A DNA stretch of 64,000 nt from a virus. The DNA is taken from positions 32,001 through 96,000 of the IMG/VR virus record IMGVR_UViG_3300045988_105285. One strand, written 5' to 3'. Positions 878 to 56,100 of this stretch are shown piece after piece (position 1 is the first letter of the stretch; each line of letters begins with the position of its first letter). The notes under the pieces were generated by a model. The model saw only the letters and a list, made by a program, of their open reading frames with translations. It was not told the DNA's origin and made no database searches. A program made the position numbers and the translations under genes.

Positions 878-1348
878 TTAACTTTCTGTAGCAGAAAAAG
901 CCAAAGAATCCACCATTTCGTTATACATATTACCTCTATGAGCCTTAACCCAATGGTATCTTATCACCTTGCCTTTCGCTACCTTATTATATATAGGCTG
1001 TAAGTCTCCTAACTTGCAAGCCTGTATTCTCTCTATAGCCACTTGGCAATCCACATATACATCAACAGAACACAAAGGAGGGCAATCACCCAATGCTTGA
1101 ATGACCGCCCTTATTTCGGCTCTCACCGAATCGTTCACTTTGGCTGTGATAAATGTATATTTCCCACTATTGATAATCGCTCCCTTATGAAGCACAAGCC
1201 AACCGCAACCACACTTGTTGTTCTTACTAGAGCCATCAGCATACACTTCATAGCGCACACCTTTATCCTCATCAACAATCATCTGAGCAACAACCTCCAA
1301 AGAGTCATTGCTCATCACATTGGCTATTTGCTTGGCTTTCTTCTTCAT
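878..1348 (-). CDS. RNase H-like protein (RNase HI family)
   Basis: DEDD-type pattern: VYADGSS, RAEIRAVIQAL, VYVDCQ, HWVKAHRGN..NEMVDSLA. Confidence 0.75.
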   Translation of the reverse strand: MKKKAKQIANVMSNDSLEVVAQMIVDEDKGVRYEVYADGSSKNNKCGCGWLVLHKGAIINSGKYTFITAKVNDSVRAEIRAVIQALGDCPPLCSVDVYVDCQVAIERIQACKLGDLQPIYNKVAKGKVIRYHWVKAHRGNMYNEMVDSLAFSATES

Positions 1349-6082: not shown

Positions 6083-6117
6083 AAGAGGAGCGCATCATAC
6101 GTTCCTCTTCTTTGTTT
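6083..6117. terminator. bidirectional intrinsic terminator between convergent genes
   Basis: Stem aagagga/tcctctt is flanked by an A-run and a T-run. Confidence 0.55.
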
Positions 6118-9100
6118 ACAATCTACTCATCTTGTCTTTTAATTCGTGAATATCATTGAATGCTTGCAGCATAGGCTTATGCCATCGCTCTTGTCGCTCA
6201 TCAATCGACTGCAAGTACATCAAGCTTTGTGCAAGGATAGTCCTACCCTCATCAACCGCTAACCAAATGTTACCTACATTACCCATAATAGTATTCACGC
6301 TAGCCGTTAATAAGCTACCCTCTGTACCACCATCACGAGCCGCAATAGCATCCAACTTGGTATTTATGAGCTTTGCTTCCTCATACGTTCCCTCTGTGGC
6401 GATCTGCACCGCAGTGAAACGACCATTCAACTCTTCTCCTGTATCTTGGCTCATTGATTCAAAAGAACCGGAAGAAGCGGACTGCTCGTAAGATTGCTTG
6501 TAACCCGTAATATCAGCAATATTATCACGAATAGCCAAACCCTCTTGAACTATCTTGTCATACTCTTCTTTAAGATTATTCAATTCGGTTGGCGTGAGCT
6601 GCCTTCCTCCATTCTCCTTCATCTTGTTTGCCCAGCTCTCATAAAGAGGCTTAAGCTTTTTATTCATAAGGTCTCCCAAAGCGAAGTTAAGCATCGACTG
6701 GTTGAGCATTGTAGTGAAGTCATTAGAAAAATCCTTTGCAGACTTACTCATATCCATAAGATTGTTTATGAAGTCACTCTTCATCGAATCAAAGGTTGTT
6801 TGAGTCAAATTCTCATTGATTTGCTCCGTCAACTCCTCTAGTTTTCCCGCCAGTTCTGTATATTGCTCCCAATATTCCGTCTTATCATACTTACCTTGGT
6901 CGGTCATGTTCTTCCATACATCCGCATTATGTGTACGAATGTCAGCCATCTGCTCTGGAGTGAGCTTATATATATCCTCCAAGGAATTAACCTTGTTTAT
7001 CGAAGAATTGGTATAACCGCCTCTGACTGCCGATTGCTGTGCCAAAGTCTTATTGATTGCCGCATAATCTTGTGCAGAAAGATTCCAATAATAAGCATTT
7101 GAATGGTGTGCCCCATGATACCCCATCTGTGTTTTGAGAATATCCATCGTTTGGGTATTAACCTGCTTTTGGGCATCATAAGCAGCATTATAATTGCTGA
7201 CTGCCGTATAACCGGAAGACTTGTCGATAGAATCCTTTAACTTATCAATAGAATACATCAATCTGTCATTGCTCTCGGTCAGCTCTTCTGTTTTCTTCGC
7301 AACTTCTGCACCATTACCTCCGCCAATACCGAACATCTTGCCCAACGAGCCAATGGTTTTTATTCCATTCATAGCCGCACCTATGTAGTTTCCGCTTGCA
7401 AAATCAGAAAAGGCTTGTGTTCCACTGTTCAATGCATCCATTCCGTTATTCACGGCTTTACCAAAGCCTGTGTTTCCGAGACCCAAAGCATCGACTAACC
7501 CAGGAAGGTCTTTCAGCTTCTCTTGGATTTTCCTCAAGCCTTCAGCCCATTCCTCTATAGTATCATGCAAGCTCTTCTTTGCAGCATCCTGCTTTACCTT
7601 GGCTTCTTCCTGTGCCTTTCCGACTTCCTTCGTAGCCTTTCCGACCTTAACCTCTGAAACCGCCAAATCATCAAAAAGCTTACGTAACTTCTCCGTTTGG
7701 CTTACACTGAGATTCTTGGTAGAACCCATAAGTTTGTCCTTATTGGCAGAAGTGATATTACTGGTATCTATGTTAACCCCACTTTCAGCAAACACGCCTT
7801 GGATTTTTCTCCTTTGGCTCATATTATCAGCCTTGGCATCAAACTCCCCCTTTCTAGCTTGTGCCAATCGGTCTTGCGCATCCTTCGCCTCATCAATAAG
7901 CCTACGGTGTTCACGGACTGCATCATTAACCAATCCCCATCTATCCTTCTGCTCGGAAATCGCATCATCAATCTTGTAGATTTGGTCAGATACGGTTTTC
8001 ATGTCATCAATTTCCAACGTACCCGAACCAAGCAACTCCTTCATCTTCTTGCGAAGGTCTTCAAGATAAGGAATACTCAATCGGTTCATATCCTGAAAGA
8101 CAACATCCCAATTGATAGAATCCTTGAAATCCGAAAAATTCAACTTCTTCAACTGGTCGCTCATCTCCATTTCCGCACTCGCTGCGCCAAAAGTATCCCC
8201 CTTTTCTCTTGCAAGGTCTATCTTGTCGGCATATTCTTTCAAGATAGCATAACGCTGCTGTTCCAAGCTACCATACTGCTTCATGAAATCCAACATATCC
8301 TTTATCTCCGCTTGCTGGATTTCCTTCAGCTTTAATTGTCTCTGTTTCTCAATCAAGGCAATTTGGTCTTCAGAGTCCTGTCCAATGGTCTTTCCTAGAT
8401 GATTACCTTTGTCGTCAACCATTTGTGTGCCCAATACCTCTTTGCGGTATTCTGCATCGGACTTACCCTGTTTCCACATGCTGGCTTTACGACCTTTTCC
8501 CGAATTTACCCATACGATTTGGTCTTTCTTCTTCTTAGCCTCAACGAGTTTGTCAATCGAATCCTCTATAGCCTTTTTCTCCTTGTCTGAAGCCATGTTG
8601 ATTTGAGCAATCTCCTTTTCGGTCTCATTCTTAATCAATTCCGTTCTTCGCTTTGACAACTCATCGCTAGCTTTCTCCGAATAGGATGAAATAGACTTGG
8701 AATAGTCCTCCTCAGCCTTGCGCTTATTACCAGCCCTTGTCTCGGCATCATTCCTAGCCTTTTCAGCTTCTCTAGCCGATTTTTCTCTTGCCTTCTTCTC
8801 CTTATCTATCTCCTTTTGGCTTTTCTTCGGCTTACTTTCGATGTTGTTACCTCTCGCTTGCATCATAGCTAACTCATTAGCTACCTGTTCGTAAGTTTTC
8901 CATTGTCCTCCGATATTTAAAAAATCCCCCTTCTTGTGTGTATCAAGAAAGTGTTGACGAGCAGCCATACTCGCTTTCAACTGAGACTGAGACATATTCT
9001 TAATCCATGCAGGAAGCTCACTATCATCATAGTTAACTTTAATATCAAGATGCAACTTTCTACTGCACAACTTTATTGTTTCTTGGATTTCACTATTCAA

Positions 9101-12100
9101 ATCCTTGAAGCTCTTCTTTGCATATTGATTTTTCAAAGCTTGTTCCTCTTGCGCATAAGTCAACTTAGATGTGGCTTTTCTCGCACGTTCTGCGGCATTG
9201 ACGCTATTATTTATAGAATCAACAGTACCATCCAACTCAACTTTGTTGCTAACAAGCCCATCAGTAAAGTCATTTATATCAGGAATCATCTGAGCCACCT
9301 CAGAACGGCTATGGTGCATATTTTCGAGATAAGTTCCTATTTTTACATTCAACTCCCCTTGTAATTGAGAATATTGAGCATTCAATGCGTTGTACACCTT
9401 TAAATCTCCACCACAAGCATTCATCTCCTTTCGCAGTTCAGCTAACTTGTCTATGTCATCCTGACTTATGAGACTTCGAATAGTTCCCATTTCTACATCT
9501 GACAACTTGTCGTCAATAGAATCTTTGAATGAACCGAAAGAGGAATCATTTGAAGAATTATAATTATCATAAGCCTCTTGTAATTGATTTGCACGCTCCA
9601 TTTCAAGAGAACGCTTTTCAATAATACCGATAAGTTCTTCTTCATGCGCCTTTAACTCTTTAGCTTGCTCACTCATGCTTTGAGACTTCATTTTAGTCTC
9701 ATCCAATTTTATTCCATATTCTTCATAAGCAGACTTCAATTCATTTATTGTGTCCTTATGGTCTTCTGCATTGCCGTTTTTAAGAACCGCGAACAAGGAA
9801 CGAACCTTATTGCTAGCCTCAGCAGCCTTATTACCCATGTCTTGAGTCTTCTTAGCAACATCTTCCTCACTACTTCCAAACATCGCAAAAACAGACATAG
9901 CGGTTGTTACCAAAGTAAGAATAGTAGTTAGAGGATTTGAAAGCATTGCAGCCCACAACTCCTTCATGCTTACCGTCACGGCATTAGTCGCCCATGTTAA
10001 CACATTTTGAGCTAAGGCTAACCCCTTTGTGCCAACAGATAATATAGATGTAACAAGGGAATTTCGTTCCTTTGCTCCTGTATTCACGTTCTCGGATGCA
10101 GTATTTACATTGGTAGCCGCAGTATTAGCCGTTTTTGAAGTCGAGTTTGCCGAATTAGCAATAGTTTCCGAAGAAGTAGCATTTGCATTAGCACTTTTAG
10201 CGGTTGCATTGCTAGCTTCTGAAGTCGTATTGGCTTGTGTAGCAGTAGTTGCCGCCTCTGTTATACTAATCTTACCATTCTCTATATCAATTCCTTGCTG
10301 AACAATATCCCCAATTTCATCTGCCGCAGCTCCGGTCTCTTTATAGACCTCAGTTTCATACTCTTCAGCTTCTGCTAACTTTTCAGTCGTAGTTTGAAGC
10401 TCCTGTTGGATAGCCTTACGCTTTGCGTTAGAACTTTCGTATTCCTCATCCGCTTGCTGACGCTTTTGTATCAGCTCTTCCAATTTCGCTTGTTCAGCCT
10501 CGTATTGAACTATTGAACTATTTTCGTTATCCGAAAAAGAATCCTCATAGCCACCAAATGAAGTCGTATCAACCGCCCCATTATCATAGACCAATTCCTT
10601 TTCTTTCTGCTCTATGATTTGCTGCTGCTTTTTTATTTCCTCATCAAGCTGAGCAAGGACTACTCTCTTTTCACGAGCCTCATCCATCGCTTTGTCGTAA
10701 CTCTCTTGCTGCAAATCTACTTTCTTCTGTAAGGCGTTAGTTTCCAAAAGAGCCTTACCATAAGCGGTTTCATTTGCCTTGGCTATTTTTTGTTTAAGGT
10801 CAGCCTCAGCCTTTGCTTGTTCCGCAGCCTTATTTGCAGCAGCAATGTCGGCTTCTTGCGATCTTTTTGCACGCAACTCTTCTTCTGCGGCTTCCTTGGC
10901 ATTTACCGCATTTTGCCATTGGAGTTGTTCTTTCTCCGCAAGTCTTGTCTGCTCAACCAAGAGGTCACGCTTCAACTGGAGTTGTTTAGCCATTTCTTCA
11001 CTAATCAACCCCTCAGATTTCGCTAATTCTATCTGCTTAGATATGCGTTTCTCCGTTTCATCATCACCGATATTTTCGGTATCGGACAAAGCATTCCCCA
11101 ACTCATTATAACGGCTTGCCTTATAATCTTTTGTATCTTTTCCGTTAAGATGTCGGTAATCATTTTCCATTTCCTTGAACTGAGCCATTTTCTCATCAAG
11201 TCCCTTGGAAAGTTCCAAAGCCTCCATCTGTTCCTTAGCAGCAGATTGTTGCTGAGTGACAAGCATATCACGTTTAAGTTGCAATTGCTCTGCCATTTGT
11301 TGGGTAATGATGCCATCGGTCTGAGCCTCCTTAATTTTAAGAGATACAAGTTCCTCAGCCTTATCCGTACCCAACATATCGGTATTAGCTACCGCCTTAT
11401 TCAAATCCGAAAGTCTTTGGCTCTTATATTCTGAAGTATCTTTTCCGGTATAGGAATGGTATAATTCGGCTTCATCTTTGTACGCTTTTATTTTTTCGTC
11501 AAGATTACTTGCAATACCATCAAGTGTAGCTTGGTTCTGAGCTTTTTGAATGGATGCTGCCGCCATCAATCCAGCTTTGTAAGTTCCAACCATAACAGCT
11601 GCACTTCCTATCGTTTTAACCAAAGTCTGCCAATTATCAACCAAAGACGAAATCAAATCTAAGCCTGTGCCAAATATTCCTTGTGACTTCTTGCCAAGTT
11701 CGTTAAACATCTGGTCAACGCTATCGCCTATGTTAGACCATTTGCCTTGCAAGGTTGTGGATTGTTTTTCCATCAGTCCGCCAAACTTGCCGCCCTCTTC
11801 GGTCATGTTGATGATAGCTTTCTTCACCAAATCAGCCCCAACCTTTCCATCGGTAACCGCTTGCTGAACCTCTTGGGTTGTCTTGCCCATGATTTTGCCA
11901 AGCTCCTCAGCCATCGGGATGCCCCTGCCCATAAACTGACGCAAGTCCATCGTGTACATGCGGCCTTGGCTCATTGTCGTACCATACAAATACACCAAAT
12001 CGTTCAACGGAACGTTCAGACCTGCCGAAATATCTCCAAGATGAACAAGAATATCATTAACCTCATTTGCAGCCGTACCATAAGCCAACAACTGCTTTGC

Positions 12101-12943
12101 CCCATTCGTTATCGAACTCATGTCGAAAGGAGTCTTCGCAGCCGTTTGAACAAGTTGATTCATTAACGCTCCCGCTCTCTGCTCACTGCCCAACATCGTT
12201 GTAAAAGAAATTTCCAGTTGTTGGAATTGTGAGCGGACATTAAAGATGTGTTCTGCCAATTGTTCAAACCCCAGGCCACCTACGAGGCTCATTGCTAATT
12301 GCTTTGCATCACCACCGAGACGATTAAATAAAGATGTTGCACCCTCACCGACAGTAGGAATTTTCTTCATTTCCTCAATCATTCCGGCAAAGGCATCAGT
12401 CATCACCTTCACGTTATCAGTAGTTGCATTCGAAGAACCTGAATAGCGGACATACTCTGCTTGCATGTTTTGCAATTCGATTCTTGCCTGCTTACCTAAT
12501 CCGGTTAGATTCTCATAACGCCTTTTCTCATCATTGAGTATAGTGGAATTTTCGCTTATATCACGATTAAGGATTGTTGAAGTGCCAATATCTAAGCCTC
12601 CTTTACGAAGTTTAGACTGCATCTTTGCAATCTCAGAAGAAAGTCTTTCAATCTTTCGCTTAGATGCGTCTGCTTGCAGCTCGAAAGAATAAACCTCTCT
12701 TGTAAGATTCTGCATTTTCTTGGCATAATCACTACTCATCACCAAAGCGTAGCGAGACATTGCGGAACTAAGCTCTGTCACCTTTTGCTTTTGCTCTGCA
12801 TATTTGTCCGTAAGGTCTTGAACCACCGCCTTATCTGTCGCCTTTGTTGTTTTCAACAACTCACCACGCAATCTTTCAAGTTCTTGCTTGGCTAGCCTTA
12901 TTTGGTCGAAATTCGCTTTGATATTAAATTCTAACTGTGCCAT
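6116..12943 (-). CDS. tail tape measure protein (TP901-family core), 2275 aa
   Basis: Core region FTTMLGSEQRAGALMNQLVQTAAKTPFDMSSITNGAKQLLAYG, long coiled-coil stretches and hydrophobic segments, all typical of tape measure proteins. Confidence 0.9.
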   Translation of the reverse strand: MAQLEFNIKANFDQIRLAKQELERLRGELLKTTKATDKAVVQDLTDKYAEQKQKVTELSSAMSRYALVMSSDYAKKMQNLTREVYSFELQADASKRKIERLSSEIAKMQSKLRKGGLDIGTSTILNRDISENSTILNDEKRRYENLTGLGKQARIELQNMQAEYVRYSGSSNATTDNVKVMTDAFAGMIEEMKKIPTVGEGATSLFNRLGGDAKQLAMSLVGGLGFEQLAEHIFNVRSQFQQLEISFTTMLGSEQRAGALMNQLVQTAAKTPFDMSSITNGAKQLLAYGTAANEVNDILVHLGDISAGLNVPLNDLVYLYGTTMSQGRMYTMDLRQFMGRGIPMAEELGKIMGKTTQEVQQAVTDGKVGADLVKKAIINMTEEGGKFGGLMEKQSTTLQGKWSNIGDSVDQMFNELGKKSQGIFGTGLDLISSLVDNWQTLVKTIGSAAVMVGTYKAGLMAAASIQKAQNQATLDGIASNLDEKIKAYKDEAELYHSYTGKDTSEYKSQRLSDLNKAVANTDMLGTDKAEELVSLKIKEAQTDGIITQQMAEQLQLKRDMLVTQQQSAAKEQMEALELSKGLDEKMAQFKEMENDYRHLNGKDTKDYKASRYNELGNALSDTENIGDDETEKRISKQIELAKSEGLISEEMAKQLQLKRDLLVEQTRLAEKEQLQWQNAVNAKEAAEEELRAKRSQEADIAAANKAAEQAKAEADLKQKIAKANETAYGKALLETNALQKKVDLQQESYDKAMDEAREKRVVLAQLDEEIKKQQQIIEQKEKELVYDNGAVDTTSFGGYEDSFSDNENSSIVQYEAEQAKLEELIQKRQQADEEYESSNAKRKAIQQELQTTTEKLAEAEEYETEVYKETGAAADEIGDIVQQGIDIENGKISITEAATTATQANTTSEASNATAKSANANATSSETIANSANSTSKTANTAATNVNTASENVNTGAKERNSLVTSILSVGTKGLALAQNVLTWATNAVTVSMKELWAAMLSNPLTTILTLVTTAMSVFAMFGSSEEDVAKKTQDMGNKAAEASNKVRSLFAVLKNGNAEDHKDTINELKSAYEEYGIKLDETKMKSQSMSEQAKELKAHEEELIGIIEKRSLEMERANQLQEAYDNYNSSNDSSFGSFKDSIDDKLSDVEMGTIRSLISQDDIDKLAELRKEMNACGGDLKVYNALNAQYSQLQGELNVKIGTYLENMHHSRSEVAQMIPDINDFTDGLVSNKVELDGTVDSINNSVNAAERARKATSKLTYAQEEQALKNQYAKKSFKDLNSEIQETIKLCSRKLHLDIKVNYDDSELPAWIKNMSQSQLKASMAARQHFLDTHKKGDFLNIGGQWKTYEQVANELAMMQARGNNIESKPKKSQKEIDKEKKAREKSAREAEKARNDAETRAGNKRKAEEDYSKSISSYSEKASDELSKRRTELIKNETEKEIAQINMASDKEKKAIEDSIDKLVEAKKKKDQIVWVNSGKGRKASMWKQGKSDAEYRKEVLGTQMVDDKGNHLGKTIGQDSEDQIALIEKQRQLKLKEIQQAEIKDMLDFMKQYGSLEQQRYAILKEYADKIDLAREKGDTFGAASAEMEMSDQLKKLNFSDFKDSINWDVVFQDMNRLSIPYLEDLRKKMKELLGSGTLEIDDMKTVSDQIYKIDDAISEQKDRWGLVNDAVREHRRLIDEAKDAQDRLAQARKGEFDAKADNMSQRRKIQGVFAESGVNIDTSNITSANKDKLMGSTKNLSVSQTEKLRKLFDDLAVSEVKVGKATKEVGKAQEEAKVKQDAAKKSLHDTIEEWAEGLRKIQEKLKDLPGLVDALGLGNTGFGKAVNNGMDALNSGTQAFSDFASGNYIGAAMNGIKTIGSLGKMFGIGGGNGAEVAKKTEELTESNDRLMYSIDKLKDSIDKSSGYTAVSNYNAAYDAQKQVNTQTMDILKTQMGYHGAHHSNAYYWNLSAQDYAAINKTLAQQSAVRGGYTNSSINKVNSLEDIYKLTPEQMADIRTHNADVWKNMTDQGKYDKTEYWEQYTELAGKLEELTEQINENLTQTTFDSMKSDFINNLMDMSKSAKDFSNDFTTMLNQSMLNFALGDLMNKKLKPLYESWANKMKENGGRQLTPTELNNLKEEYDKIVQEGLAIRDNIADITGYKQSYEQSASSGSFESMSQDTGEELNGRFTAVQIATEGTYEEAKLINTKLDAIAARDGGTEGSLLTASVNTIMGNVGNIWLAVDEGRTILAQSLMYLQSIDERQERWHKPMLQAFNDIHELKDKMSRL
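10928..11503 (-). repeat. tandem internal duplication inside the tape measure gene (two units of about 92 aa)
   Basis: aa 481-572 aligns with aa 581-672 (GKDT..YK..R...L..A...T...G.D..E....K.......G.I...MA.QLQLKRD.LV.Q). Confidence 0.7.
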
Positions 12944-13606: not shown

Positions 13607-13795
13607 TTAAAGCCCAAGCAATCTTTCAAGAATACTGTCGTAAGTCTTTCGAGAAACTTCACGACTGCCGTGCCGTGGCACTGGACATTTAAGTTTTGTT
13701 GTTGGACTAAACCAAATGTCGTGATTACCACCATGCCGAACCACATAGCAACCTGCTTGGGTCAGCTTTCTCACTAATTGACTAGTCTTCATCAT
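13607..13795 (-). CDS. hicA: HicA-family mRNA interferase toxin
   Basis: 62 aa with LVRKLTQAGCYVVRHGGNHDIW...CPVPRHGSREVSRKTYDSIL, matching the HicA pattern (G.H...... VP.H...E....T...IL). Confidence 0.8.
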   Translation of the reverse strand: MMKTSQLVRKLTQAGCYVVRHGGNHDIWFSPTTKLKCPVPRHGSREVSRKTYDSILERLLGL

Positions 13796-13951: not shown

Positions 13952-14042
13952 TTTACTTTACTATACTAAACAGTTCTATACTGGGCTTCGCTGCACAACA
14001 CTATACTGCGCTGTACTGGACAACACTTAACTAAACTGCCCT
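13952..14042 (-). repeat. degenerate short repeats with an AGTATAG / AGTGTTGT core
   Basis: Minus strand has CAGTACAG, CAGTATAG (x2), TAGTATAG and AGTGTTGT(C/G)CAG (x2). Confidence 0.5.
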
Positions 14043-14584: not shown

Positions 14585-14687
14585 TACCCTTTACTACACT
14601 AAGCTATACCAGTCTGCACTTAACTATACTAGACTTCACTTTGCCCTACAGAACTTCACTTTGCAACACCGTACTTTAAATATCTAG
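14585..14687 (-). repeat. array of roughly 20-nt degenerate tandem repeats between the two minihelices
   Basis: Minus-strand units: AGTGAAGTTCTGTAGGGCAA / AGTGAAGTCTAGTATAGTTA / AGTGCAGACTGGTATAGCTT / AGTGTAGTAAAGGGTA. Confidence 0.55.
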
Positions 14688-23147: not shown

Positions 23148-23573
23148 TTAGTCCTTATAGATTGCATCAAGAATGCTTCTGAAATTCGGATTATCAATAA
23201 CGGCTTGGGCATCTTCTTTGTTCTTGAAGTAAATTGCACCTTCGTTATAATTACCACAAGAAGTAATACCATATTCGTTGGTTCGCATGATATTATGCTT
23301 ATATTCTTGAGAATTCCAGTCCGGTTTCCAATCTCCATTATAGTACTTAGCTATAGTCATTAACCTAGCTAATGCGATTATCTTTCCAGCAATCATTTCA
23401 GGAACTTTTATATCGGCAGGACAAACACCTTTACCAGCTAAAGCAGATAAAACATCCGCATAGCTGATTTCCTTCTTTCTAAGCTTAATAACACCAGCTT
23501 TTAAATCACAATTCTCAATGTCCACTTCCATTCCTTTAGGAATATCTAGGACTATTTTGTTATCGTCTATCAT
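23148..23573 (-). CDS. hypothetical protein (141 aa)
   Basis: The ATG lies 7 nt after the iscB stop codon. Confidence 0.55.
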   Translation of the reverse strand: MIDDNKIVLDIPKGMEVDIENCDLKAGVIKLRKKEISYADVLSALAGKGVCPADIKVPEMIAGKIIALARLMTIAKYYNGDWKPDWNSQEYKHNIMRTNEYGITSCGNYNEGAIYFKNKEDAQAVIDNPNFRSILDAIYKD

Positions 23574-23580
23574 AACTTAT

Positions 23581-24828
23581 TCAACTTTCGGAAGTCCTTT
23601 CTTCCATTAAAATGTTATTTCTAATTCTTTTCAAAAACTTTATCGTTTTGGCACTCACAGCTTGCGTTTCATGCACCTTTACACCATCAATTTTACGCAA
23701 AACAACATTACCATGCGTACTACCAAAGATAAAACACTCCTTGCCTTTCCACCGCACCATGTCGAAACGCTGAAAGCGAGACTTGCCTATCTTGTGCGAA
23801 GCGATGCAAGACCTACGAATACCACCTTTCTTCGGGTTCGCAACGTGCAATGCTCTCGTATGGCGAGGTACACAACGACACATAAAGAAAGTTCTCGACC
23901 GCCTTGCGTGTACGTTCTTGGCAATACAGAAAGCATCGGCTGCATGAGTTTTCTCAATATCATTCTCTATGCGAGTGTGCTTGGTAATGTAACCATAGGT
24001 TAAGTACACATTTCCAAACTCAGCCTTGGCTCGTTCATACACCGACCAACGCATAATGTTCATCACCGCCGCATCACGCAAAGTTGTACCACGCTTGATT
24101 TTCAAATCGAACTCACCACGATGGTAAGCCTTGTGGCAGGTCTCGCACAAAACAACCAAGTTGGATGGGGAATTGCCACCAACCTTGCGGCTCTCCAAAT
24201 GGTGAACATTCAAGATAGGGTCTTTGCTCTTGCCCTTGCAATGAACACACTTATGTCCATCCCTTGCCAAGACGTACTCCCTCACGTTCCAAAAGCCCAT
24301 TTGCTCACCCTGCTGATACTCTTCGCCCTTGATGTCGGAATTCTTGATTTTCTGAGCATCAAACTGAGCAACCTCGATTGTGGTCTTCGTAATTGGAAGT
24401 AACTTATGAACCAAGCGGATAACCTTTAAGTGGCTCTCTACCTTTTGCTCAATACTGGGTGCTAGCCAACCATCCTTTCGTTTGCGGTTGTCAAAACGAA
24501 CCTTGCGGTAACGTGTCTTGCGGTTTCGTCTTGTCCGTCTCAACTCCCTGCGAGTAGAAAGCAAGTTCACAACATCACTTCTTAACTCGACCTGCGCTGC
24601 AAGCAGCTCCTTCTTCTCGGAACTAGCCGAAACGCCAATGTGCTTTGAGCCAGCATCAATGCCAAGGCTCACTTCCTGTGTGTAGATGGTGCTCTCATAA
24701 TCCAACTGAACGACAAACGGAACACGGCTGACTACATGAGCCTTGCCATGGCGAAGAAGATAGCCTATCCTCCCTTCACGCTCAGTCGGCATCAATGCCT
24801 TACCTTCCTTGTTCCTTACGTAAATCAT
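23581..24828 (-). CDS. iscB: IscB RNA-guided endonuclease (OMEGA effector; PLMP + split RuvC + bridge helix + HNH)
   Basis: Motifs in order: KALMPT; LGIDAGSKHIGVS; RRELRRTRRNRKTRYRKVRFDNRKRK; TIEVAQFD; CVHCKG..LNVHHLESRKVGGNSPSNLVVLCETCH; THAADAFCIA; then a C-terminal beta-rich domain. The ORF-track start at 24837 is a TTG; the ATG is at 24828. Confidence 0.88.
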   Translation of the reverse strand: MIYVRNKEGKALMPTEREGRIGYLLRHGKAHVVSRVPFVVQLDYESTIYTQEVSLGIDAGSKHIGVSASSEKKELLAAQVELRSDVVNLLSTRRELRRTRRNRKTRYRKVRFDNRKRKDGWLAPSIEQKVESHLKVIRLVHKLLPITKTTIEVAQFDAQKIKNSDIKGEEYQQGEQMGFWNVREYVLARDGHKCVHCKGKSKDPILNVHHLESRKVGGNSPSNLVVLCETCHKAYHRGEFDLKIKRGTTLRDAAVMNIMRWSVYERAKAEFGNVYLTYGYITKHTRIENDIEKTHAADAFCIAKNVHARRSRTFFMCRCVPRHTRALHVANPKKGGIRRSCIASHKIGKSRFQRFDMVRWKGKECFIFGSTHGNVVLRKIDGVKVHETQAVSAKTIKFLKRIRNNILMEERTSES

Positions 24829-24844
24829 AAAAATCAATTTAAAT

Positions 24845-25155
24845 TAATAAATAAATCTCACCTCGAAAGGTGGTTGTGCGCCCATCGCCAATGTTATGGG
24901 GTGGTTTCTTGTCCGCAGCACCGCAGCTTTCGCCACTTTTAACCACGAACCGCAGAGGACAGAACTTGGACGGACATCCTGACGTGCCTATGCATTCACC
25001 CCTAACGTAGCTCCCTAATTCCATTCGGGGCTGAGGCTAATCCGCTCCGGACGATTGAATGGATAATCGCTGTAGCCTAATCAAAGGCTTCCGGAACTTG
25101 AATCAGGTAATTTGGCACGTATCATTCTTGTGTTCTCCGCATCAATATAGACGTT
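24845..25155 (-). ncRNA. candidate omega-RNA of IscB
   Basis: About 310 nt with no credible ORF and visibly GC-richer. Stems: TCCGGA(25090-95)/TCCGGA(25046-51) enclosing AGCC..GGCT and CGATT..AATCG hairpins; GTGGTT/AACCAC (24901-06/24941-46); CCCAT/ATGGG; and a terminal CACCU-UUCG-AGGUG hairpin (24859-72) followed by a U-rich tail. Confidence 0.6.
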
Positions 25156-25164
25156 TTTGTATTC

Positions 25165-25172
25165 CAAATCTA
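25165..25172 (-). promoter_or_regulatory. -7 box (TAGATTTG), candidate promoter for the omega-RNA/iscB transcript
   Basis: Plus strand caaatcta is the reverse complement of TAnnTTTG. It lies just downstream of the stop of ORF 25190..25459. Confidence 0.4.
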
Positions 25173-25189
25173 CGCCTAAAATTTCCTGA

Positions 25190-25459
25190 TTAAGCTTTGC
25201 TACATCCATATCTCATTAATATAAAAGCACTACGTTGAAGATCCCTCTGTTTGAACGGATTCTTCTCCTGTATTTTATTCACATCTTTTCGTATCTTGCG
25301 GCTTTTCCACTTCTTTGTAAGACGCATAGCCTTTAACAAACGATGGTCTCCGGCTAGCTTTCCAGCATCCTTCTTGCCACAATAATAGCCTTGCCTATAA
25401 GCCCAATATCGGGTTTTATAGACTTGCTTCATTATCTTCTTAGCTTGTCTTATCTTCAT
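25190..25459 (-). CDS. small highly basic protein (89 aa)
   Basis: Lys/Arg-rich: MKIRQAKKIMKQVYKTRYWAYRQGYY...KKWKSRKIRKD. No family assigned. Confidence 0.5.
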   Translation of the reverse strand: MKIRQAKKIMKQVYKTRYWAYRQGYYCGKKDAGKLAGDHRLLKAMRLTKKWKSRKIRKDVNKIQEKNPFKQRDLQRSAFILMRYGCSKA

Positions 25460-25462
25460 ATA

Positions 25463-25837
25463 CTACTTGTTTTTATAAATTTCACATGTCCCCTCATAAA
25501 TAGTGTTATTACTATAAATGTCATTATATTGCGAAATGGAAACCAATTCGTTTGCCTTCATTCCCCGGAGAATGTCATCATACACACTTTCTATTGCTCT
25601 TCTCTTCAATTGCTCCATGCCAGATTTGTCACGGCAATAGTATTGCATTTCAAAGTGTGACATTTCAACTCTTGAATGAAGCTTAATAACTTGTGGCTTT
25701 ATGTATCTAACCTCTATCTTTGGTTTGATGCCTAATTTGTCAGCTAGCCATTGCTTCCATTTTGGCTTAACATCTTCCCCGTCTAAGCAAGCAAGTAATA
25801 TATAAATAAGACTAACACTTATATATAAAATTTCCAT
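25463..25837 (-). CDS. hypothetical protein with an N-terminal hydrophobic segment (124 aa)
   Basis: MEILYISVSLIYILLACL, followed by a soluble domain. Confidence 0.5.
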   Translation of the reverse strand: MEILYISVSLIYILLACLDGEDVKPKWKQWLADKLGIKPKIEVRYIKPQVIKLHSRVEMSHFEMQYYCRDKSGMEQLKRRAIESVYDDILRGMKANELVSISQYNDIYSNNTIYEGTCEIYKNK

Positions 25838-25943
25838 ACGCTACTTCTTTCTTGTTAAACTTATCGCCTAGGTGATTCAATGATCTTTAGAACGCAATTG
25901 GTCAAATCCTAACTTATACCAATATCTTCTTGACCACCAATAA

Positions 25944-30517: not shown

Positions 30518-31243
30518 CTAATCAATAGTAAACAACCTTTCGACTGGTCTCTTTGTAATATTCGGGTTAATGGAATTAGTTATTTCCTTTTCCCAGACAC
30601 ATCTGAACTCTTGCGGCATCTGATACTCGCTGATAAAGACCTTATGTCCTCTTCTAGCCATTTCCATGCACCAAATATAGAAACTTTCATAATCGAAGTT
30701 CTTTGATACATCATACTTTTTCGTAGCTTTGTAAGGTATATCGCAATACACTATACTCCTTTCCGGTATCACAAGTTCATCATAACTGCCGCTATAGAAC
30801 TCAACACCTTTAATGAGAGGCACATCACGCATTGTATTTTCTATCTGCTCCCTTATGTAATCCCTTGCCTTTCCGTTCTTGCCGACAACATTATGTCCGC
30901 TATAGCCACCATCAAAGAAGCGACCATTAAAGCTTGCCATGAAGCCGACTAGTCCTACACCAGCTTCGGTAAAGAAATTATTCTTTCCATGATAGCAATC
31001 TCGTGCCTTGTCATACGTCTCCTTGCTAATATGCCTGAAGACAAATCCTCCATCCTGAAGATGCTTCCACATTTCGATAAGATACCTATTCTTATCGTTG
31101 GCAATCCTGCGATACGTGTCCGGAACGTTCTCAATAACGCTACAGCCACCACAGAAAGCATCTACAAACGTATCATGTTCCTTGTCCAGCATAATCGGCA
31201 ATATTTCATGCACGATTCTAGCCTTACTACCCATGTACTTCAT
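30518..31243 (-). CDS. N6-adenine DNA methyltransferase (Dam-like, D12 class)
   Basis: YMGSKARIVHEILPIM, FVDAFCGGCSV (AdoMet motif) and VYCDIPY (DPPY-type catalytic motif). Confidence 0.85.
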   Translation of the reverse strand: MKYMGSKARIVHEILPIMLDKEHDTFVDAFCGGCSVIENVPDTYRRIANDKNRYLIEMWKHLQDGGFVFRHISKETYDKARDCYHGKNNFFTEAGVGLVGFMASFNGRFFDGGYSGHNVVGKNGKARDYIREQIENTMRDVPLIKGVEFYSGSYDELVIPERSIVYCDIPYKATKKYDVSKNFDYESFYIWCMEMARRGHKVFISEYQMPQEFRCVWEKEITNSINPNITKRPVERLFTID

Positions 31244-31497: not shown

Positions 31498-32345
31498 CAG
31501 CTTGCTTTCTTTGATGTTGTTCTCTCCAAAGGAAAGTCACTCTTCATAAAGTCATTAATCCCTATGTAAGTCCGCTGCAAATCCTTCTCATCGCCTTTTA
31601 AGTCTTCCGTTGCATTAATAGCAGCCTCATTTAATGTCTGTTCGTCAAAGACACCTTTTCTCACCTTGTCGAAATAAGAAAGAATTTCTTTGGTCATCAA
31701 ATGGTCTGCCAGTCTCTCGAAATCCTTATCCATCACTAACGCCATGAAGTCATAGGAGTTTTCAAAAGCAAGTATTGGGGCAAAATCCTTGAACGCTTGC
31801 ATTAAGTTAACGTGCAATTCTTCAAACAGCTTACGGATGATATTCTCATAAGTGCCCAAACAAAGGTTAGTGAGATTATAAAGGATGATTGCATTCGCAT
31901 AAACTCCCGATTTTTCACCAATTCCTAAGTTCTGTAACCTCACCGCGATCTTATCTCGCAACTTATACAAGTCTCCACTAATCTTGTCATAGAACGTCAT
32001 TGCGAATTCGTTATTAAAATCTGCATTAGGAACATAAGCGTCATAATACTTAACCACCTTGCGAAGATTCTTCTTGCAGTCCACCCACCTCTTCTTAACT
32101 TCAAACCTAACGCATTTCTTCTTCAGAATACTCTTTTCGATTTTCTGAATGAAACACTCTGCCAATATCATTTCGACATAGACATACTGCTGTAGATAGG
32201 CTCTGGTAACAACCATAACCTTATTTACTTCGGTTTCGGACATTTCATGCGGAACACTGATGATTGTCTTCTTGCCACCGACATCTAACAGAACTCTTCT
32301 GAAACAATTAACACTAGACATGATGTTTTCTGTTTGAATATTCAA
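31497..32345 (-). CDS. hypothetical protein (282 aa)
   Basis: Long clean ORF. No motif recognised. Confidence 0.6.
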   Translation of the reverse strand: MNIQTENIMSSVNCFRRVLLDVGGKKTIISVPHEMSETEVNKVMVVTRAYLQQYVYVEMILAECFIQKIEKSILKKKCVRFEVKKRWVDCKKNLRKVVKYYDAYVPNADFNNEFAMTFYDKISGDLYKLRDKIAVRLQNLGIGEKSGVYANAIILYNLTNLCLGTYENIIRKLFEELHVNLMQAFKDFAPILAFENSYDFMALVMDKDFERLADHLMTKEILSYFDKVRKGVFDEQTLNEAAINATEDLKGDEKDLQRTYIGINDFMKSDFPLERTTSKKAS

Positions 32346-34858: not shown

Positions 34859-35148
34859 AAACCCTTAAAAAGTTTCTTAACCTCTCTCTTCTCCTCCTTT
34901 GGATGGGAGCACATCACAACTTGCGCTCTTTGATTGTGTCTTACCTGCCATTCGCAAGTGTTGCAACCCAAATCACCGACCTTATTAACGGCATTGGTAT
35001 ATCTTCCTTTCTCACCATAGGGACAATCGGTAACGAAATCCTTTCTTCCCCAGATATACTCATCTATTCTATATGAGATTGCGTTTACTTTCTCCTTTTT
35101 CTCTTTATTATTCAAAAACATCATTTCGTCAATATTTAAAATAGACAC
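34855..35148 (-). CDS. small Cys-containing protein (97 aa), overlaps the C5-methyltransferase stop
   Basis: DCPYGEKG...GCNTCEW...MCSHP is a possible zinc-binding pattern. Confidence 0.5.
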   Translation of the reverse strand: MSILNIDEMMFLNNKEKKEKVNAISYRIDEYIWGRKDFVTDCPYGEKGRYTNAVNKVGDLGCNTCEWQVRHNQRAQVVMCSHPKEEKREVKKLFKGL

Positions 35149-36185
35149 AACTGACCATCATCAGCGACCTTAACATTATTCTCAGGAAACCAAAGTTCCT
35201 CAAATATTATCTCCATGCATGCTACAACTATAGAGTTTCCAGCAGCTTTTTGAAGACTTGACTTCGACACTCCACTTTCAAGCATCCGACCTATGTATTC
35301 TTCGTCAACGTTCATCAAACGGAAGAGTTCTCTCGGAGTCAAACGCCTAATACGCAACCTTGTCTTTCCAAGCACAACCAAGGAGTCCTTGCTCGCAGAT
35401 GTAATGGTATTAGCTATATTCTTTCCAAGCTCAACCTTTGGACTATGCTTTTCGCCTTTTATCCACTTCCCTTCAGAACGAGTCCTTATAGCTGCACCCA
35501 TAGGCTCTTTCCATTCATTTGGTACAAATTTCTCTTTACATAGCAGAGTATCGCTCAAAAAGTACTTTTCGTCCACATTTTCCTCCAAGACATCAACCAA
35601 ATGTTTCTTCAGCTTTGTCTTTCTCGGGAAATGATAATCTATCTTATCACCATCATTTCGTATAGAGAGCATGAAGACACGTTTTCTGTTCTGAGGAACA
35701 CCGCAGTCGGCAGCATTTACCACCTTTGCATAATTGGCATATCCGTAGGATTCCAGCTCCTTGCGCCACTTGTTGAAGAACCCGATGAACTTTGTTTGAA
35801 CCAAAGCCTCTACATTCTCCATTAAGAGGTATTTCGGTCTCTTGGTAATAATGGCGTTTCTTGTGAACCAAAGGATAGAGGAACGTGTATTGCTTCCCTC
35901 CTCTATTCCTTCCTGCATTCCGGCTTGCGAAACAGACTGACAAGGTGTTGAATATGTCAGCAAGTCAAAATCAGCAACCTTGCTCCAATCTATCTTGGTC
36001 ATATCACCAAAGTTCTTGCCGGACAGACTAGGAAAACAAGCGTTATGCAAGGTTATTGCACTTGGCTCTATCTCCGACCAGCCGATGCACTCGTAATCAA
36101 AATCAGAATGTTTCTTCTTCAGTCGTTCCAAAGCCATCAGTTGAGAATCATATCCGGCACATAATTCAAATGTTCGTATCTTCAT
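35136..36185 (-). CDS. DNA (cytosine-5)-methyltransferase
   Basis: Motifs FELCAGYDS (I), TYSTPCQSVSQAG (IV, PCQ), LLMENV (VI), VPQNRKRVF (VIII), RRLTPRELFRLM (IX) and AAGNSIVV (X). Confidence 0.9.
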   Translation of the reverse strand: MKIRTFELCAGYDSQLMALERLKKKHSDFDYECIGWSEIEPSAITLHNACFPSLSGKNFGDMTKIDWSKVADFDLLTYSTPCQSVSQAGMQEGIEEGSNTRSSILWFTRNAIITKRPKYLLMENVEALVQTKFIGFFNKWRKELESYGYANYAKVVNAADCGVPQNRKRVFMLSIRNDGDKIDYHFPRKTKLKKHLVDVLEENVDEKYFLSDTLLCKEKFVPNEWKEPMGAAIRTRSEGKWIKGEKHSPKVELGKNIANTITSASKDSLVVLGKTRLRIRRLTPRELFRLMNVDEEYIGRMLESGVSKSSLQKAAGNSIVVACMEIIFEELWFPENNVKVADDGQLCLF

Positions 36186-36553: not shown

Positions 36554-37744
36554 TTAATTATCTGTTTCAAACACCGTTTGCTTGCCTCGTCTTAACACAC
36601 GATACTTCTCAGGAGCCATTGGTAAGCCATTCTCTTTTAAAGCTTTCTCGTAAGCTCCAAAAGCTAAACAATCGGCTTGTTCGTTCAAATCATCACCATT
36701 ATGTCCCTTTACCCAAGTCAAAATAACAAGCTTGTCCTTTGCACACTTACGATACAACTTGATTAAGTCTGGGTTCTTTATATCTGCACCTATCTCCCAA
36801 TCTGTATAGCGGAACATTTTCAATGCGTACTTAGAATCACTTCGAACCTCTATGACAGAACCTTTCGGGCAATAATTAACAGCTGATATTATAGCCAACA
36901 TTTCCATACGATTTGAGGTCGTATGCAAGCAATGATGTGTCTTAACCTTTTCCAACTCCCCTGTAGCCGTGTTCACAACGATATAAGCCGAACCGCCAGC
37001 CTTATGAGTGGAATAATTATCACAACTACCATCGGTATAGCAAATATAGTTTGGAAGAAGCCTTTTTCTTTCCACTACAGTTTCTTCTTTCTTAGGTTGA
37101 ACCTTTCCATACTTTGCATTCTTGCCTGTTCGCAAAACGGAGTTGTAAGCACCTGCCAATGTTCGCCAATCATCACAATAGTTTCCATCTTTCTGTCTCC
37201 ATCCGTTTTTCCATAACAAGTCCCACAAATCTTCGATAAAGCCCTTTTCTATCCAATTTTTCTTTATACAGAAACCCGAAAAGACTCGGGAAGATGGTAT
37301 CTTCGCATACAAATCCTTTGCCATTTCGTCAATAGCATAATCTTTTTTGTTTGCGGTACACCAATTGGGAATAACAATTATCACCTCCCTCTTGCCAAGC
37401 AGACGTTTGAATCTAGATATATTGCCAAAGTAGCGATTAGACTCTTCCGCAAAGTCAGCATTCTTCACTAAATTCGCAAAAGTTTTGTTTGAAACACGAA
37501 TCGTAAACAAGTCTATATCCTTACAAGTTTCCAATATTCTATTAACCAAGTCAAACATAGCCTCTATTTTGTCGGCTTGTTGCTCGTTGACCAGGAAGTT
37601 GTCACGAATGAATTTGTCACCATCATACAATCGACTACAAGCCAACACTCGATTTGCACCTTTCACACGATATGAACTCAGATAAACATCATAAGCTCTA
37701 ACTTGATGTTCTGATTCCAAGTACTTTTCTTCTATCTTCTTCAT
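36554..37744 (-). CDS. two-domain protein: N-terminal degenerate RNase H-like region + C-terminal RNase HI domain
   Basis: The C-terminus has CYTDGSCDN, SNRMEMLAIISAV, VRSDSKY and WVKGHNGDDLNEQADCLA. The N-terminal half has the same spacing but lacks the first Asp. Confidence 0.7.
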   Translation of the reverse strand: MKKIEEKYLESEHQVRAYDVYLSSYRVKGANRVLACSRLYDGDKFIRDNFLVNEQQADKIEAMFDLVNRILETCKDIDLFTIRVSNKTFANLVKNADFAEESNRYFGNISRFKRLLGKREVIIVIPNWCTANKKDYAIDEMAKDLYAKIPSSRVFSGFCIKKNWIEKGFIEDLWDLLWKNGWRQKDGNYCDDWRTLAGAYNSVLRTGKNAKYGKVQPKKEETVVERKRLLPNYICYTDGSCDNYSTHKAGGSAYIVVNTATGELEKVKTHHCLHTTSNRMEMLAIISAVNYCPKGSVIEVRSDSKYALKMFRYTDWEIGADIKNPDLIKLYRKCAKDKLVILTWVKGHNGDDLNEQADCLAFGAYEKALKENGLPMAPEKYRVLRRGKQTVFETDN

Positions 37745-53154: not shown

Positions 53155-56100
53155 CTAATTTAATAAATTAATATTCTTGTTATCTAATCTCTTCTTGTTA
53201 TTGCCGTCCTGCTTTCCGCTCAATCGCTGAACCTCGGATTCGAGGAAGACCACACGAGCCTTCAATCTACTCACCTCATCGCCCACCTGCTCGATAGCAC
53301 CGAATGCCGTTGCAATCAGCTTCGGAGACCAATAATTAATTTTGTAGTAGCCCTTCTCATCAGTCTCCACGATGTCCTTTAAGTGAGGGTTGCACAAGAC
53401 GTGCTGGGCAATCCAACCGATAGACCTTGTGTTGTCCTTCTTCCAAGCGAAGCCGAACGTGCCACCCATTGCCTTGATGATACCGAAGTAGTCCAGCTTC
53501 CGCAAATCCTGCTTCAAGCGGATGTCTGAGGATGAGTAAGCAGTAATGCCGCCAGTGGCGAGAAAATTACCATTATTTTCATAATCCATCATTGCAACTT
53601 GTTTCCAATTATTGAAGTATGTTGCGTTATATTCTTTGTTCCTATAGTACAATGCTCCGCTTCCACCTGCTAACCATAGTTGCGGTTGCCAATGGTTATG
53701 ATAATTTGTTAATATTTCTATTACATGTCCGTAAGTAGTTGGACCTCCATCATAATATACCTCATAAACATTCATTTTACCAAGCCACGAGGAATCATTA
53801 GTTTTTATTGTTGACCATAAACCTTTATTGACTTTCTCACTGTCGCCTCTGCATAATACACTTGTTACACGTAATGCTTGATTAACCACAAGAGCACTCG
53901 TCATATATGACCTTAAATAGTCATCAGAACCATTTGTTCCCCATACTCTAGCAGGACTACTATTGTTACCTTCATTTCCAGAACTGCAATTAATATAACC
54001 ACAAAATATATATCCATTTTGGTCAGTTCTAACTATTTTATTAGCTTCATTATTTCGTCCTGAATGTACGTGTAACCCATCACAAGTGTCAGCATTACCG
54101 GCATTATTAGCATAACCATTAACTAACGCATTATATAAACTATTAGCACCTTTTTGGCTAAGACTAATAGTACTATTTAAATCCGTAAAAGTATCAGTAA
54201 TTCCACGCCAAGTATTTTGCCAAGTAGTAGAAGTTCCATTAATCGTAATAGTATTACCGCTTACAGAACCTGTAACAAAGTTTTTGTCATTAGCAAACTG
54301 ACTTAACTTCGTTGGTCTCTCACTAACATTTCCCCAAGCTACGGAATTGGCACTTCCTGCACTGCTTGCGTAGTTAACAGATAAACTTGATATAGCCTTA
54401 TGTCCACCACCACCTAATAAAACGTAGTCGTCAGAACTAACACCTCCTATTATAAACCCTTTTGCTTTGATTGGAAGATAACCTTCATTTTTATAATCAA
54501 ACCAAGTTAGAGATGTATCTGATTCCATTCTAAGACTACCCCAACATACGTTTAATATATGGAATCCAATTCCTGGAGTAGATGTTAAACCATCATATTT
54601 ACTTGTATTGAGAAATAATCTCATAGTATTTGGTTCTGTCATTCCTCCAGTTGGAGTATCTAACACCAAAACTCCAGTCATAGTTCCACCTCTAAGTTTA
54701 AGATAGGTATTAGCAGCATCAGCAGACTTCAAATAAGCACTAAGACTTTGATGACTAGTCAGGAACGTTGCACCTTTGGTAAAGGTGAGTTTCTTGCCAC
54801 TTTTCGATACCGAGGTGATAGCGTTGCCAGTGCCGCTAATCGCAACCTCATTGACGTAGCCATCTAGGCTCTGATGTGAAGTCAAGAACGTTATTCCCTT
54901 TGTCACGCTGATAGTCGTTCCGTTCTTACTGATGGCTGTCACTGCGTTTCCACTACCGCTAACACTAACGTCCATAGCCGAGCCTCCTTCTAGGCTGACA
55001 ATACGACTATCAAGAGCCTTGATAGAGTAGGCAGAAGCTATCTCAGACAAAGATTCGCTAGCAAGCTTCAAGGCATCTGCATAGCTCTTCACACTACCAT
55101 TCAACCCACCACCACCTGACGAGCCACTACCTTCACCATAGGCGGTAATGCCACCAGTAGCATAGAAGTTAGCTGCGGTTGTACCATCAGACTTAACTAC
55201 TTTAATGGCAGTATTAGCTTTATCATAAACTAATCTGACATCACCAATTTGCACATAAACACCATCAGTATTAGCAATAGTTATACTGCCATTTACATCA
55301 GCATTACCATTCACGCTATTGCCCCAAAGCTTTCTTGTTGTTCCCCAATAAGAAGTTACTATGTTGGCAGTACCATTAAACGATGTTCCGTTTATAGTTC
55401 TAGAGTTCTGTAACTTAGTAGCACTTCCAGCATTACCGCTAATACTAGCAGAAGCTGTAATGAACCCTGCTCCATTAGTAAGCTGATTAGTATTGTTTGG
55501 AATACTAATAGACTTTGCAGCAGAACCATTATAAGAACCACTACTATAACCGCTCCAAGAAAGAGCATTAGCAACTTTTGATGCAGATGCTACATTGTCA
55601 GTAACTCTAGCAAGTCTTACCCAAGGAGCAGCCCAAGCTGCATCATTACTTATCTTGCCTCCAGCTCTAGAACGGACATAAACTTCAGTAGTGCCAGCTT
55701 TTATAGCAAACTGAGTTTGCCACATATCAGGAGAAGTTGCCGTATTATTACTATCAGTATAAGACAGATTAATATAATGATGCCAACCAGTTTGTCCATT
55801 AGGATTAACATAACCATTCAACGTTTGATAGTTAGCAGTAGAACTAGCATAAGGTGCTGCAATATTAGACATACCCATACTATTCCCGTGTGTTGCAATA
55901 TCGTTAAAATTGTTTCCAACACCACTAGGAAAAGCTCTTACTAAATTCAGTGCTTTAGAAGTTCCACCAATACTAATAGTAACCTTGTTTGCAACATCAG
56001 AAATACTGAAACCAGTAAACAAACCACTAGCGTGATAATTATCTACCATATCTGCGTTATGAGCAGTAGCTTCATTTTTAACCCAATTCTGAGTTGCATA

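Follow-up and report, generated by a model that had tools for sequence, protein, structure and literature searches.

A complete non-autonomous IscB–omega-RNA element under purifying selection in a family of tailed gut phages, and its possible spread by RNA-guided homing

What does an RNA-guided nuclease of transposon lineage do in the genome of a phage, and how would it spread there? The question is raised by a 64,000-nucleotide (nt) stretch of viral DNA (IMG/VR record IMGVR_UViG_3300045988_105285, positions 32,001 to 96,000; the whole stretch is hereafter the window, and coordinates are counted from its first nucleotide), in which a reading made from the letters and their open reading frames (ORFs) alone (the sequence-only reading) had proposed a phage-borne IscB with its omega-RNA encoded upstream, serving inter-phage competition, homing or host targeting rather than transposition. 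IscB is the ancestor of Cas9, and to our knowledge what it does in nature is understood only where it belongs to chromosomal transposons with a resident TnpA. IscB, omega-RNA, copies lacking TnpA and homing are all already known, and IscB-like genes are already present in some GenBank phages. The comparative analysis reported here shows what is, as judged from its sequence, a complete non-autonomous IscB-type OMEGA element (ISC, or IS200/IS605, lineage) under strong purifying selection; the coordinates of its parts and of other features of the window are collected in Table 1.

The gene itself encodes 415 amino acids (aa) from its ATG, a size that fits the ~400–500 aa range of the IscB family, the mechanical extent of the ORF (23581..24837, (-) strand) giving 418 aa counted from a TTG. 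The protein matches the NCBIfam equivalog NF040563 (guided_IscB, 'RNA-guided endonuclease IscB') at 351.4 bits (cut-off 175; E=3.9e-105), Pfam RRXRR (PF14239) over residues 2–174 (203 bits, cut-off 25) and Pfam HNH (PF01844; 30.9 bits, cut-off 21.4). The top matches in the PDB are the solved IscBs (7UTN, 7XHT, 8CSZ and newer entries), at E=1e-45 with the single sequence and at E=6e-75 with a family profile, collinear over residues 2–335. The motifs that the sequence-only reading had listed are all there and in the order that it gave (PLMP, RuvC-I, arginine-rich bridge helix, RuvC-II, HNH insert, RuvC-III), with no REC lobe, and its call of IscB is upheld by the NF040563 match and by an alignment in which no catalytic residue is lost: D58 (RuvC-I), E152 (RuvC-II), H209/H210 (HNH) and H295/D298 (RuvC-III) fall in motif blocks aligned with those of OgeuIscB (GID, the RuvC-II block, HH and H..DA). 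On these matches the ORF is a bona fide IscB, and its identity is secure. A type II CRISPR-Cas9 was considered and ruled out, as the window contains no repeat array and the Cas9d profile scores 23 bits against a cut-off of 375.

OgeuIscB in its complex with omega-RNA (7UTN, 7XHT, 8CSZ) resembles the phage protein in domain order and catalytic residues, whereas the latter is ~80 aa shorter (415 versus 496 aa), with a shorter linker after the bridge helix. A profile of the phage C-terminal domain found no sequence match in the PDB. The last ~80 aa, the candidate domain for interaction with the transposon-adjacent motif, are nevertheless homologous to IscB C-termini down to 33–44% identity, the Geobacillus clade included, and are predicted as a beta-domain with a predicted local distance difference test (pLDDT) score of 73–87, within poor global AlphaFold models (pLDDT 34 with a shallow alignment, 48.8 with a two-clade alignment). 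The top seven Foldseek matches of the low-confidence model are IscB or IsrB, the OgeuIscB structures being the best, but with TM-scores of 0.21–0.28 they are not independent evidence and were not relied on.

Is such a gene still at work? Each of the 33 copies examined, which comprise 28 unique sequences, has an intact ORF of 388–424 aa, the catalytic residues of both sites are retained in 28 of the 28 unique copies, and the pairwise ratio of nonsynonymous to synonymous divergence (dN/dS) has a median of 0.10 (interquartile range 0.08–0.13, 362 pairs). From the catalytic residues kept, the dN/dS of ~0.10 and the compensatory changes in the RNA described below, activity of the IscB and its omega-RNA can be strongly inferred.

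The DNA that immediately precedes iscB, on the same (-) strand, is by profile and covariation the omega-RNA of this IscB, placed upstream with a 5' guide as in OgeuIscB. A covariance-model search, which the sequence-only reading had suggested for its proposed omega-RNA, bears that proposal out, with a match to Rfam HEARO (RF02033) over the full model length at 75.7 bits (E=9e-15), under the gathering score of 83. Relatives at 50–58% protein identity score 105–153 bits (153 for Geobacillus) and the phage clade 71–78. The sub-threshold score arises because the divergent P1 stem was mis-aligned, cmscan having used a small local hairpin instead; the true P1 with its enclosed hairpins corresponds to the P1 of the model plus an insert of ~42 nt. 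RF02033 also lacks downstream elements (Meers et al., PMC10055086). RNAalifold of 20 copies from different contexts predicts 71 pairs, and at 16 of these both partners have changed in a compensatory way. With this structure fixed, 98.5% of cells pair, versus 37–42% with the partners slid, and 86 compensatory cells are observed versus 35 ± 4.5 after shuffling, a value that none of 500 shuffles reaches. The 3' hairpin, with three covarying pairs in its stem, and the U-rich run after it form the sole terminator-like site within 23300..25900.

These results also settle what had been noticed of the region at first sight. It is indeed richer in G+C (44–53% over ~23700–25100 versus mostly 30–40% in the flanks), and the nested stems seen there find their counterpart in the covariation-supported pairs; the statement that it holds no credible ORF needs qualifying, as two short mechanical ORFs overlap it (24839..25024 and 25081..25209), and both are accounted for, by the RNA's own sequence and by the remnant of a phage gene (orfX) that reads on into the element. 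A sigma-70 promoter scan around the RNA found sites no more enriched than in shuffled sequence, and none immediately ahead of the guide. Spotted by eye only, TAGATTTG at 25165..25172 (-), ~65 nt upstream of the element end and within the orfX remnant, fits the Bacteroidetes-type -7 consensus TAnnTTTG and might drive transcription of the omega-RNA.

Where does the element begin and end? Its left boundary, on the RNA side, was drawn by comparison with the empty alleles of 72 related loci and by locating where conservation sets in across more than 12 unrelated contexts: similarity begins exactly at TCAAG across 32 IscB loci, with everything upstream unrelated, and in the window the element starts with TCAAGTTCCGG, after the CCTGAT of orfX. 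The right boundary was obtained from the conserved end ...GAAAGTTGA; the element closes on ...GGACTTCCGAAAGTTGA, in which TGA is the IscB stop codon, and it measures 1,515–1,527 bp elsewhere. The extent first given to it (23581–25191) was too long, RNA and element both ending at 25101 and what follows being the stump of orfX. This gene, which has no Pfam or PHROG family, is intact (~111 aa) in most relatives (for example at loci L008 and L049), where it reads ...AAATTACCTGAT followed directly by GGGTATTGC..., and in the window the element replaces the rest of it (~220 nt) together with the first codons of the next gene. The two ends match at 17 of 20 positions as an inverted repeat, which is retained at 13–18 of 20 in all variants (null mean 8.0, maximum 13, in 20,000 draws); the IscB C-terminus encoded at the right end, ...NNILMEERTSES, is at the same time conserved as protein across contexts. 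Small hairpins can be read directly from the sequence 9–14 nt inside each end, and the P1 stem starts 4 nt inside. AT is present at both flanks, the junction bases being ambiguous.

Immediately 5' of the conserved scaffold stands unrelated flanking DNA in all contexts (32 loci, more than 12 contexts). Since the scaffold begins at the element end, the guide would be the adjoining ~16 nt of phage DNA, as in canonical IscB systems, in which a transposon end delimits the omega-RNA and the neighbouring flank supplies the guide (PMC10055086). The predicted guide 16-mer of the window was counted in at least 60 empty alleles of relatives, of which 29 have it exact, with GGGTATTG after it, and 25 have it with a single G>T change, 2–3 bases from the junction; in carriers the scaffold comes next. 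No second target at three or fewer mismatches occurs within the window or the related loci. An internal guide, GATTATCCATTCAATC (25068..25053, the 16 nt before the Rfam match), was also considered and rejected, as it is conserved in all contexts and lies within a hairpin inside P1; no target for it was found at two or fewer mismatches.

The G>T allele (CCTGAT to CCTTAT, Asp to Tyr in orfX, at the position equivalent to 25104 of the window) is found in ~25 of ~60 element-free alleles, among them loci L009, L017, L032, L051–L053 and L056. Lying at the motif-proximal end of the predicted protospacer, the change may be a mutation by which the target escapes, or it may only mark a lineage.

On the opposite side, the right flank starts with AT in 10 of 10 contexts (background 0.089, p=3e-11), mostly as AT(A/T)(A/G), which is (C/T)(A/T)AT in the transposase orientation. 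The transposon-adjacent motifs (TAMs) of Geobacillus elements, TTCAT and TTTAT, are AT-rich like this flank (PMC10055086), and that of OgeuIscB is NWRRNA (PMC12660989). When counting starts 2 nt ahead of TCAAG, 7 of 11 empty alleles have an NWRR-type motif after the guide match (background 0.19, p ~0.001), the motif having been picked post hoc. A TAM derived from the flanks is suggestive, given post-hoc statistics and ambiguous junction bases, and no TAM is claimed here.

How does the element behave in related phages? The comparison covered 81 related loci holding the downstream 141-aa gene; at this site four carry the full element, five a shorter mini-element and 72 neither, and some of the genomes empty here carry the element elsewhere. 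At 82–98% protein identity it occupies ~20 left-junction contexts, in the same orientation as the neighbouring genes, and in at least 9 of 12 contexts the downstream ORF starts no more than 30 nt past its end. Because element and mini-element occur at ~20 junction contexts, movement from site to site has taken place, and the view that the system acts 'rather than transposition' was too strong. In all seven contexts whose right flank can be located in empty alleles, 16–773 nt of the empty allele are replaced, and a simple insertion, in which the empty site would equal the left flank joined to the right flank, was found in none of these seven. The longest replacement, of 773 nt, is that of loci L093, L094 and L098, where a C5 DNA-methyltransferase gene is interrupted by the element immediately behind its catalytic PCQ motif; the intact C5-methyltransferase gene of the window is the 'empty' allele for that insertion.

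In five context pairs the right junction is common and the guide-side junctions differ, lying 28–105 nt or more apart. These pairs (L095/L104, L110/L096, window/L002–L004, L102/L103 and L086-type/L189), in which the scaffold start is mostly kept, look like the outcome of repeated deletion flush with the RNA end, each event of which would create a new guide. At the right junctions of L101, L105 and L166 the empty allele holds a stretch like the end of the element (TTGAAT, AGTTGG and GAAGTTT), which hints at microhomology-mediated joining or target mimicry. IscB is 98–99.6% identical between the window and three other carriers, the adjacent genes being 94–96.5% identical, and RNA and protein modules recombine with each other.

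The mini-element (297–328 nt) lacks the IscB gene: its omega-RNA is followed by a strong hairpin of terminator type (CATCCC-TTCG-GGGATG, then a stretch rich in T), and the final ~35 nt of the right end complete it. It is found in at least five contexts, several of which are occupied in other genomes, at identical junctions, by the full element. By RNA sequence, the minis of three contexts cluster together (mean mini–mini distance 0.034 versus 0.080 for mini–full) and do not group with the full copy at the same site; sequence clustering of this kind argues that an omega-RNA-only mini-element of 325 nt has spread from site to site. Three contigs carry one mini-element and a full-length element elsewhere in the genome. 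The simplest reading would be a non-autonomous lineage that uses IscB in trans.

By what route, then, would the element reach a new phage genome? From the loci compared, we consider it rather probable that it homes, by RNA-guided cleavage of element-free alleles in co-infecting relatives and recombinational copying. Read-through or local transcription would yield an omega-RNA with its 5' ~16 nt taken from the phage DNA just outside the element, and IscB with this RNA would cut a guide match next to a short AT-rich motif, that is to say the same locus in a co-infecting element-free relative, while the element's own copy would be protected, as there the scaffold, and not the motif, follows the guide match. 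Recombinational repair from the carrier would then copy the element, and everything between the homology arms, into the cut genome, which would explain both the replacement of 16–773 nt and the abutment on the next gene. Deletions on the RNA side would create new guides, mini-elements would probably borrow IscB in trans, and movement to new sites would need something else, the likeliest source being a Y1 TnpA provided in trans by the host or another element. Of the roles offered by the sequence-only reading, the best fit is homing or inter-phage competition, given that the guide position corresponds to flanking phage DNA also found in element-free relatives; host targeting is unsupported.

Homing by TnpB and IscB has precedent (PMC10055086), and a 2026 review treats homing into co-infecting phages ('non-restorative') as a theoretical possibility only (PMC13565253). 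The nearest parallel in phages may be found in the free-standing homing endonucleases of T-even phages (seg and mob; 'intronless homing'), which share with the element a presence/absence polymorphism between conserved neighbours, an intergenic or gene-end position, operon orientation and local replacement, with spread expected in co-infection (PMC13565253). In contrast to seg and mob, the target here would be read by an RNA guide and a short motif instead of by protein, and the distinction between self and non-self would come from the element interrupting its own target. In the IS605 TnpB 'gene drive', element-free copies of a multicopy plasmid are cut and repair copies the element independently of TnpA; that drive belongs to the Cas12 lineage, acts on plasmids and was demonstrated experimentally, whereas here an IscB would act in phages by a mechanism deduced from sequence (PMC11870625). 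A broader proposal, in which the IscB elements of these phages are transposase-independent RNA-guided homing elements whose guides are renewed by flush deletions and which are parasitised by mini-elements, can be put forward only tentatively and is, taken as a whole, somewhat unlikely.

Several points weigh against homing. The element is rare at the window's site (9 of 81 loci), unlike an efficient drive, and a common empty allele has ATGGGT or GGGTAT after the guide match, differing after the shared AT from the ATAAGT at the right flank of the element, so that this allele may not be cleavable. Guide RNA and cleavage are predictions and the adjacent motif is a candidate. The excess of IscB identity over its flanks is modest in a phage family that is mosaic anyway, and a simple donor-joint allele was not found in IMG/VR. 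Terminal inverted repeats and AT at both sides are not classical features of IS200/IS605 elements, in which subterminal hairpins and no target duplication are expected, and the absence of TnpA, for which no Y1 (PF01797) match was found among the called gene products, refers to the 64-kb window, a part of the phage genome and none of the host.

Could the element be an ordinary passenger insertion sequence (IS), mobilised by a host TnpA alone, with IscB confined to 'restorative' re-cutting after excision and its phage location meaningless? The lack of a linked transposase would fit, as iscB lies next to tnpA in only ~1.5% of cases and its absence is usual (~98.5%; PMC10055086). An AT-rich right-flank motif resembling the TnpA target motif and the combination of many insertion sites with a derivative like a miniature inverted-repeat transposable element, typical of IS families, point the same way, and with IS200/IS605-type (ISC) elements the phage element shares discrete ends, multiple unrelated sites and an AT-rich motif distal to the omega-RNA. 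It departs from them in having no TnpA in the window and in the replacements described above, none of the seven contexts with a locatable right flank, nor of the others compared likewise, being a simple insertion, as well as in the five junction pairs that share only their right side. The kept orientation of neighbour genes and the position just upstream of the next ATG are further difficulties, and the closest cellular IscBs are at most 58% identical, except on one short contig of a metagenome-assembled genome (MAG), so that the clade appears from these comparisons to be phage-resident. A passenger IS of this kind is rather improbable in our judgement, though it is the main rival to homing.

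Chromosomal elements of Geobacillus stearothermophilus offer a further comparison. The ISGst IscB is ~50% identical to the phage protein with a homologous C-terminal domain, the transposon end bounds the omega-RNA, the guide is the flank, the motif is AT-rich and most copies lack tnpA (PMC10055086), all as in the phage element. ISGst elements move by means of a resident TnpA, and at clean donor joints they were shown to home restoratively (PMC10055086), whereas the phage elements have no TnpA in the window, replace phage sequence, keep inverted repeats at 13–18 of 20 positions and start P1 4 nt inside the end.

Two further explanations fare worse. The IscB could be a domesticated phage weapon that mainly destroys rival phages or host DNA by exclusion, copying being irrelevant; homing nucleases of phages are known to kill competitors as well (PMC13565253), and the guide does match a sequence found in many related phages, but it is whatever flanks the element and not a selected spacer, it lacks a second target in the sequences searched, and the element, which has ends of its own and a parasitic mini-form, behaves like a mobile unit, all of which makes the weapon quite improbable. 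That the locus is an inactive relic, a decaying IscB gene with a fossil RNA, is less credible still, being already contradicted by these data: the HEARO score under the gathering threshold and the absence of TnpA in the window would agree with decay, yet the low score was traced to the mis-aligned divergent P1, and the dN/dS, the 33 intact ORFs of 33, the invariant catalytic residues and the 16 RNA pairs with compensatory changes argue strongly against it. The preferred explanation remains homing between co-infecting phages.

The wider family is large. More than 8,000 close homologues make up the IscB clade, many on contigs of 60–130 kb, and IMG/VR holds many relatives of the phage (65–135 kb), while the nearest GenBank record, MT835610.1 (an unannotated human-faecal 'Bacteriophage sp.'), contains the same island at 96% identity. 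Of 50,697 phage records in GenBank, 23 contain IscB homologues, which go there by the names 'HNH endonuclease' or 'hypothetical protein', and two PHROG families (phrog_119 and phrog_2214) match IscB nearly full length under the sole label 'HNH endonuclease'. Those catalogued HEARO- or IscB-like genes, from Staphylococcus Silviavirus, Ralstonia phages and Clostridium phage c-st, are 29–47% identical and carry generic labels, without analysis of ends, guides or population behaviour; HEARO RNA is annotated in Staphylococcus Silviavirus genomes (PMC13346280). JGI annotation names several IscB homologues (55% identity; P0156, P0157, P0170, P0201, P0215 and P0223) 'N6-L-threonylcarbamoyladenine synthase', an evident mis-annotation.

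The phage-borne setting proposed by the sequence-only reading is confirmed by the portal, tape measure, lysin and Rha/Ant genes, from which the window is, by gene content, that of a tailed gut phage. It also encodes ThyX, and its lysin belongs to GH108. In the 2,981-aa fibre-like protein, a membrane-binding domain and a C-terminal endosialidase-chaperone domain are matched only weakly, below threshold. Serglycin matches in the search for TnpA were discarded as artefacts of GS linkers. Just downstream of the tape-measure gene lies a HicA-toxin-like gene (13607..13795, (-) strand, 62 aa; Pfam HicA_toxin, E=1e-10), adjoined by two tandem repeats (13976..14027 and 14593..14641) with periods of 25 and 20, ~2–2.5 copies and similar CTGCAC-rich units.

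Table 1. Coordinates of the IscB element, its parts and other features, in positions of the window.
Feature	Position	Strand	Remarks
Whole IscB/omega-RNA element, GC-rich island	23581..25101	(-)	1,521 bp
IscB coding sequence	23581..24828	(-)	415 aa from ATG at 24828
Left terminal inverted repeat TCAAGTTCCGGAAGCCTTTG	25082..25101	(-)	also start of RNA scaffold
Right terminal inverted repeat AAAGGACTTCCGAAAGTTGA	23581..23600	(-)	overlaps last IscB codons and stop
Predicted omega-RNA scaffold	24859..25101	(-)	Rfam HEARO, RNAalifold, covariation controls
P1 stem of omega-RNA	25097..25091 paired with 25050..25044	(-)	encloses two small hairpins
HEARO-matching core	25052..24873	(-)	Rfam RF02033
Extra 3' hairpin of omega-RNA	24872..24859	(-)	covarying; 3' of Rfam model
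Terminator-like hairpin CACCTTTCGAGGTG then AGATTTATTT	24849..24872	(-)	omega-RNA 3' end, ahead of IscB start codon
Predicted guide segment TGCCAAATTACCTGAT	25102..25117	(-)	register ± ~2 nt; alternative 25104..25119
Right flank ATAAGTT, candidate transposon-adjacent motif (reverse complement ...CTTAT)	23574..23580	(-)	between element and ATG at 23573
orfX stump	25102..25209	(-)	36 of ~111 codons left
Mini-element loci	L002–L006, L156, L161, L165, L174, L181, L182, L186, L189		outside the window
Tape measure protein	6116..12943	(-)	2,275 aa
Fibre-like protein, probably tail fibre	53155..62100	(-)	2,981 aa
RNase H-domain proteins (two)	878..1348, 36554..37744	(-)	one as C-terminal part of a 396-aa protein
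DNA methyltransferases: D12 N6-adenine (Dam-type), C5-cytosine	30518..31243, 35136..36185	(-)	

What does the element mean for these phages? It adds a compact (415 aa) IscB clade, under clear selection and with a well-defined RNA, whose genes have been hidden in phage catalogues behind the label 'HNH endonuclease'. The phage family offers a natural population for testing RNA-guided homing from phage to phage, holding carriers, empty alleles with and without the seed-position change, omega-RNA-only derivatives and many insertion contexts, and it could show how guides are turned over without a transposase.

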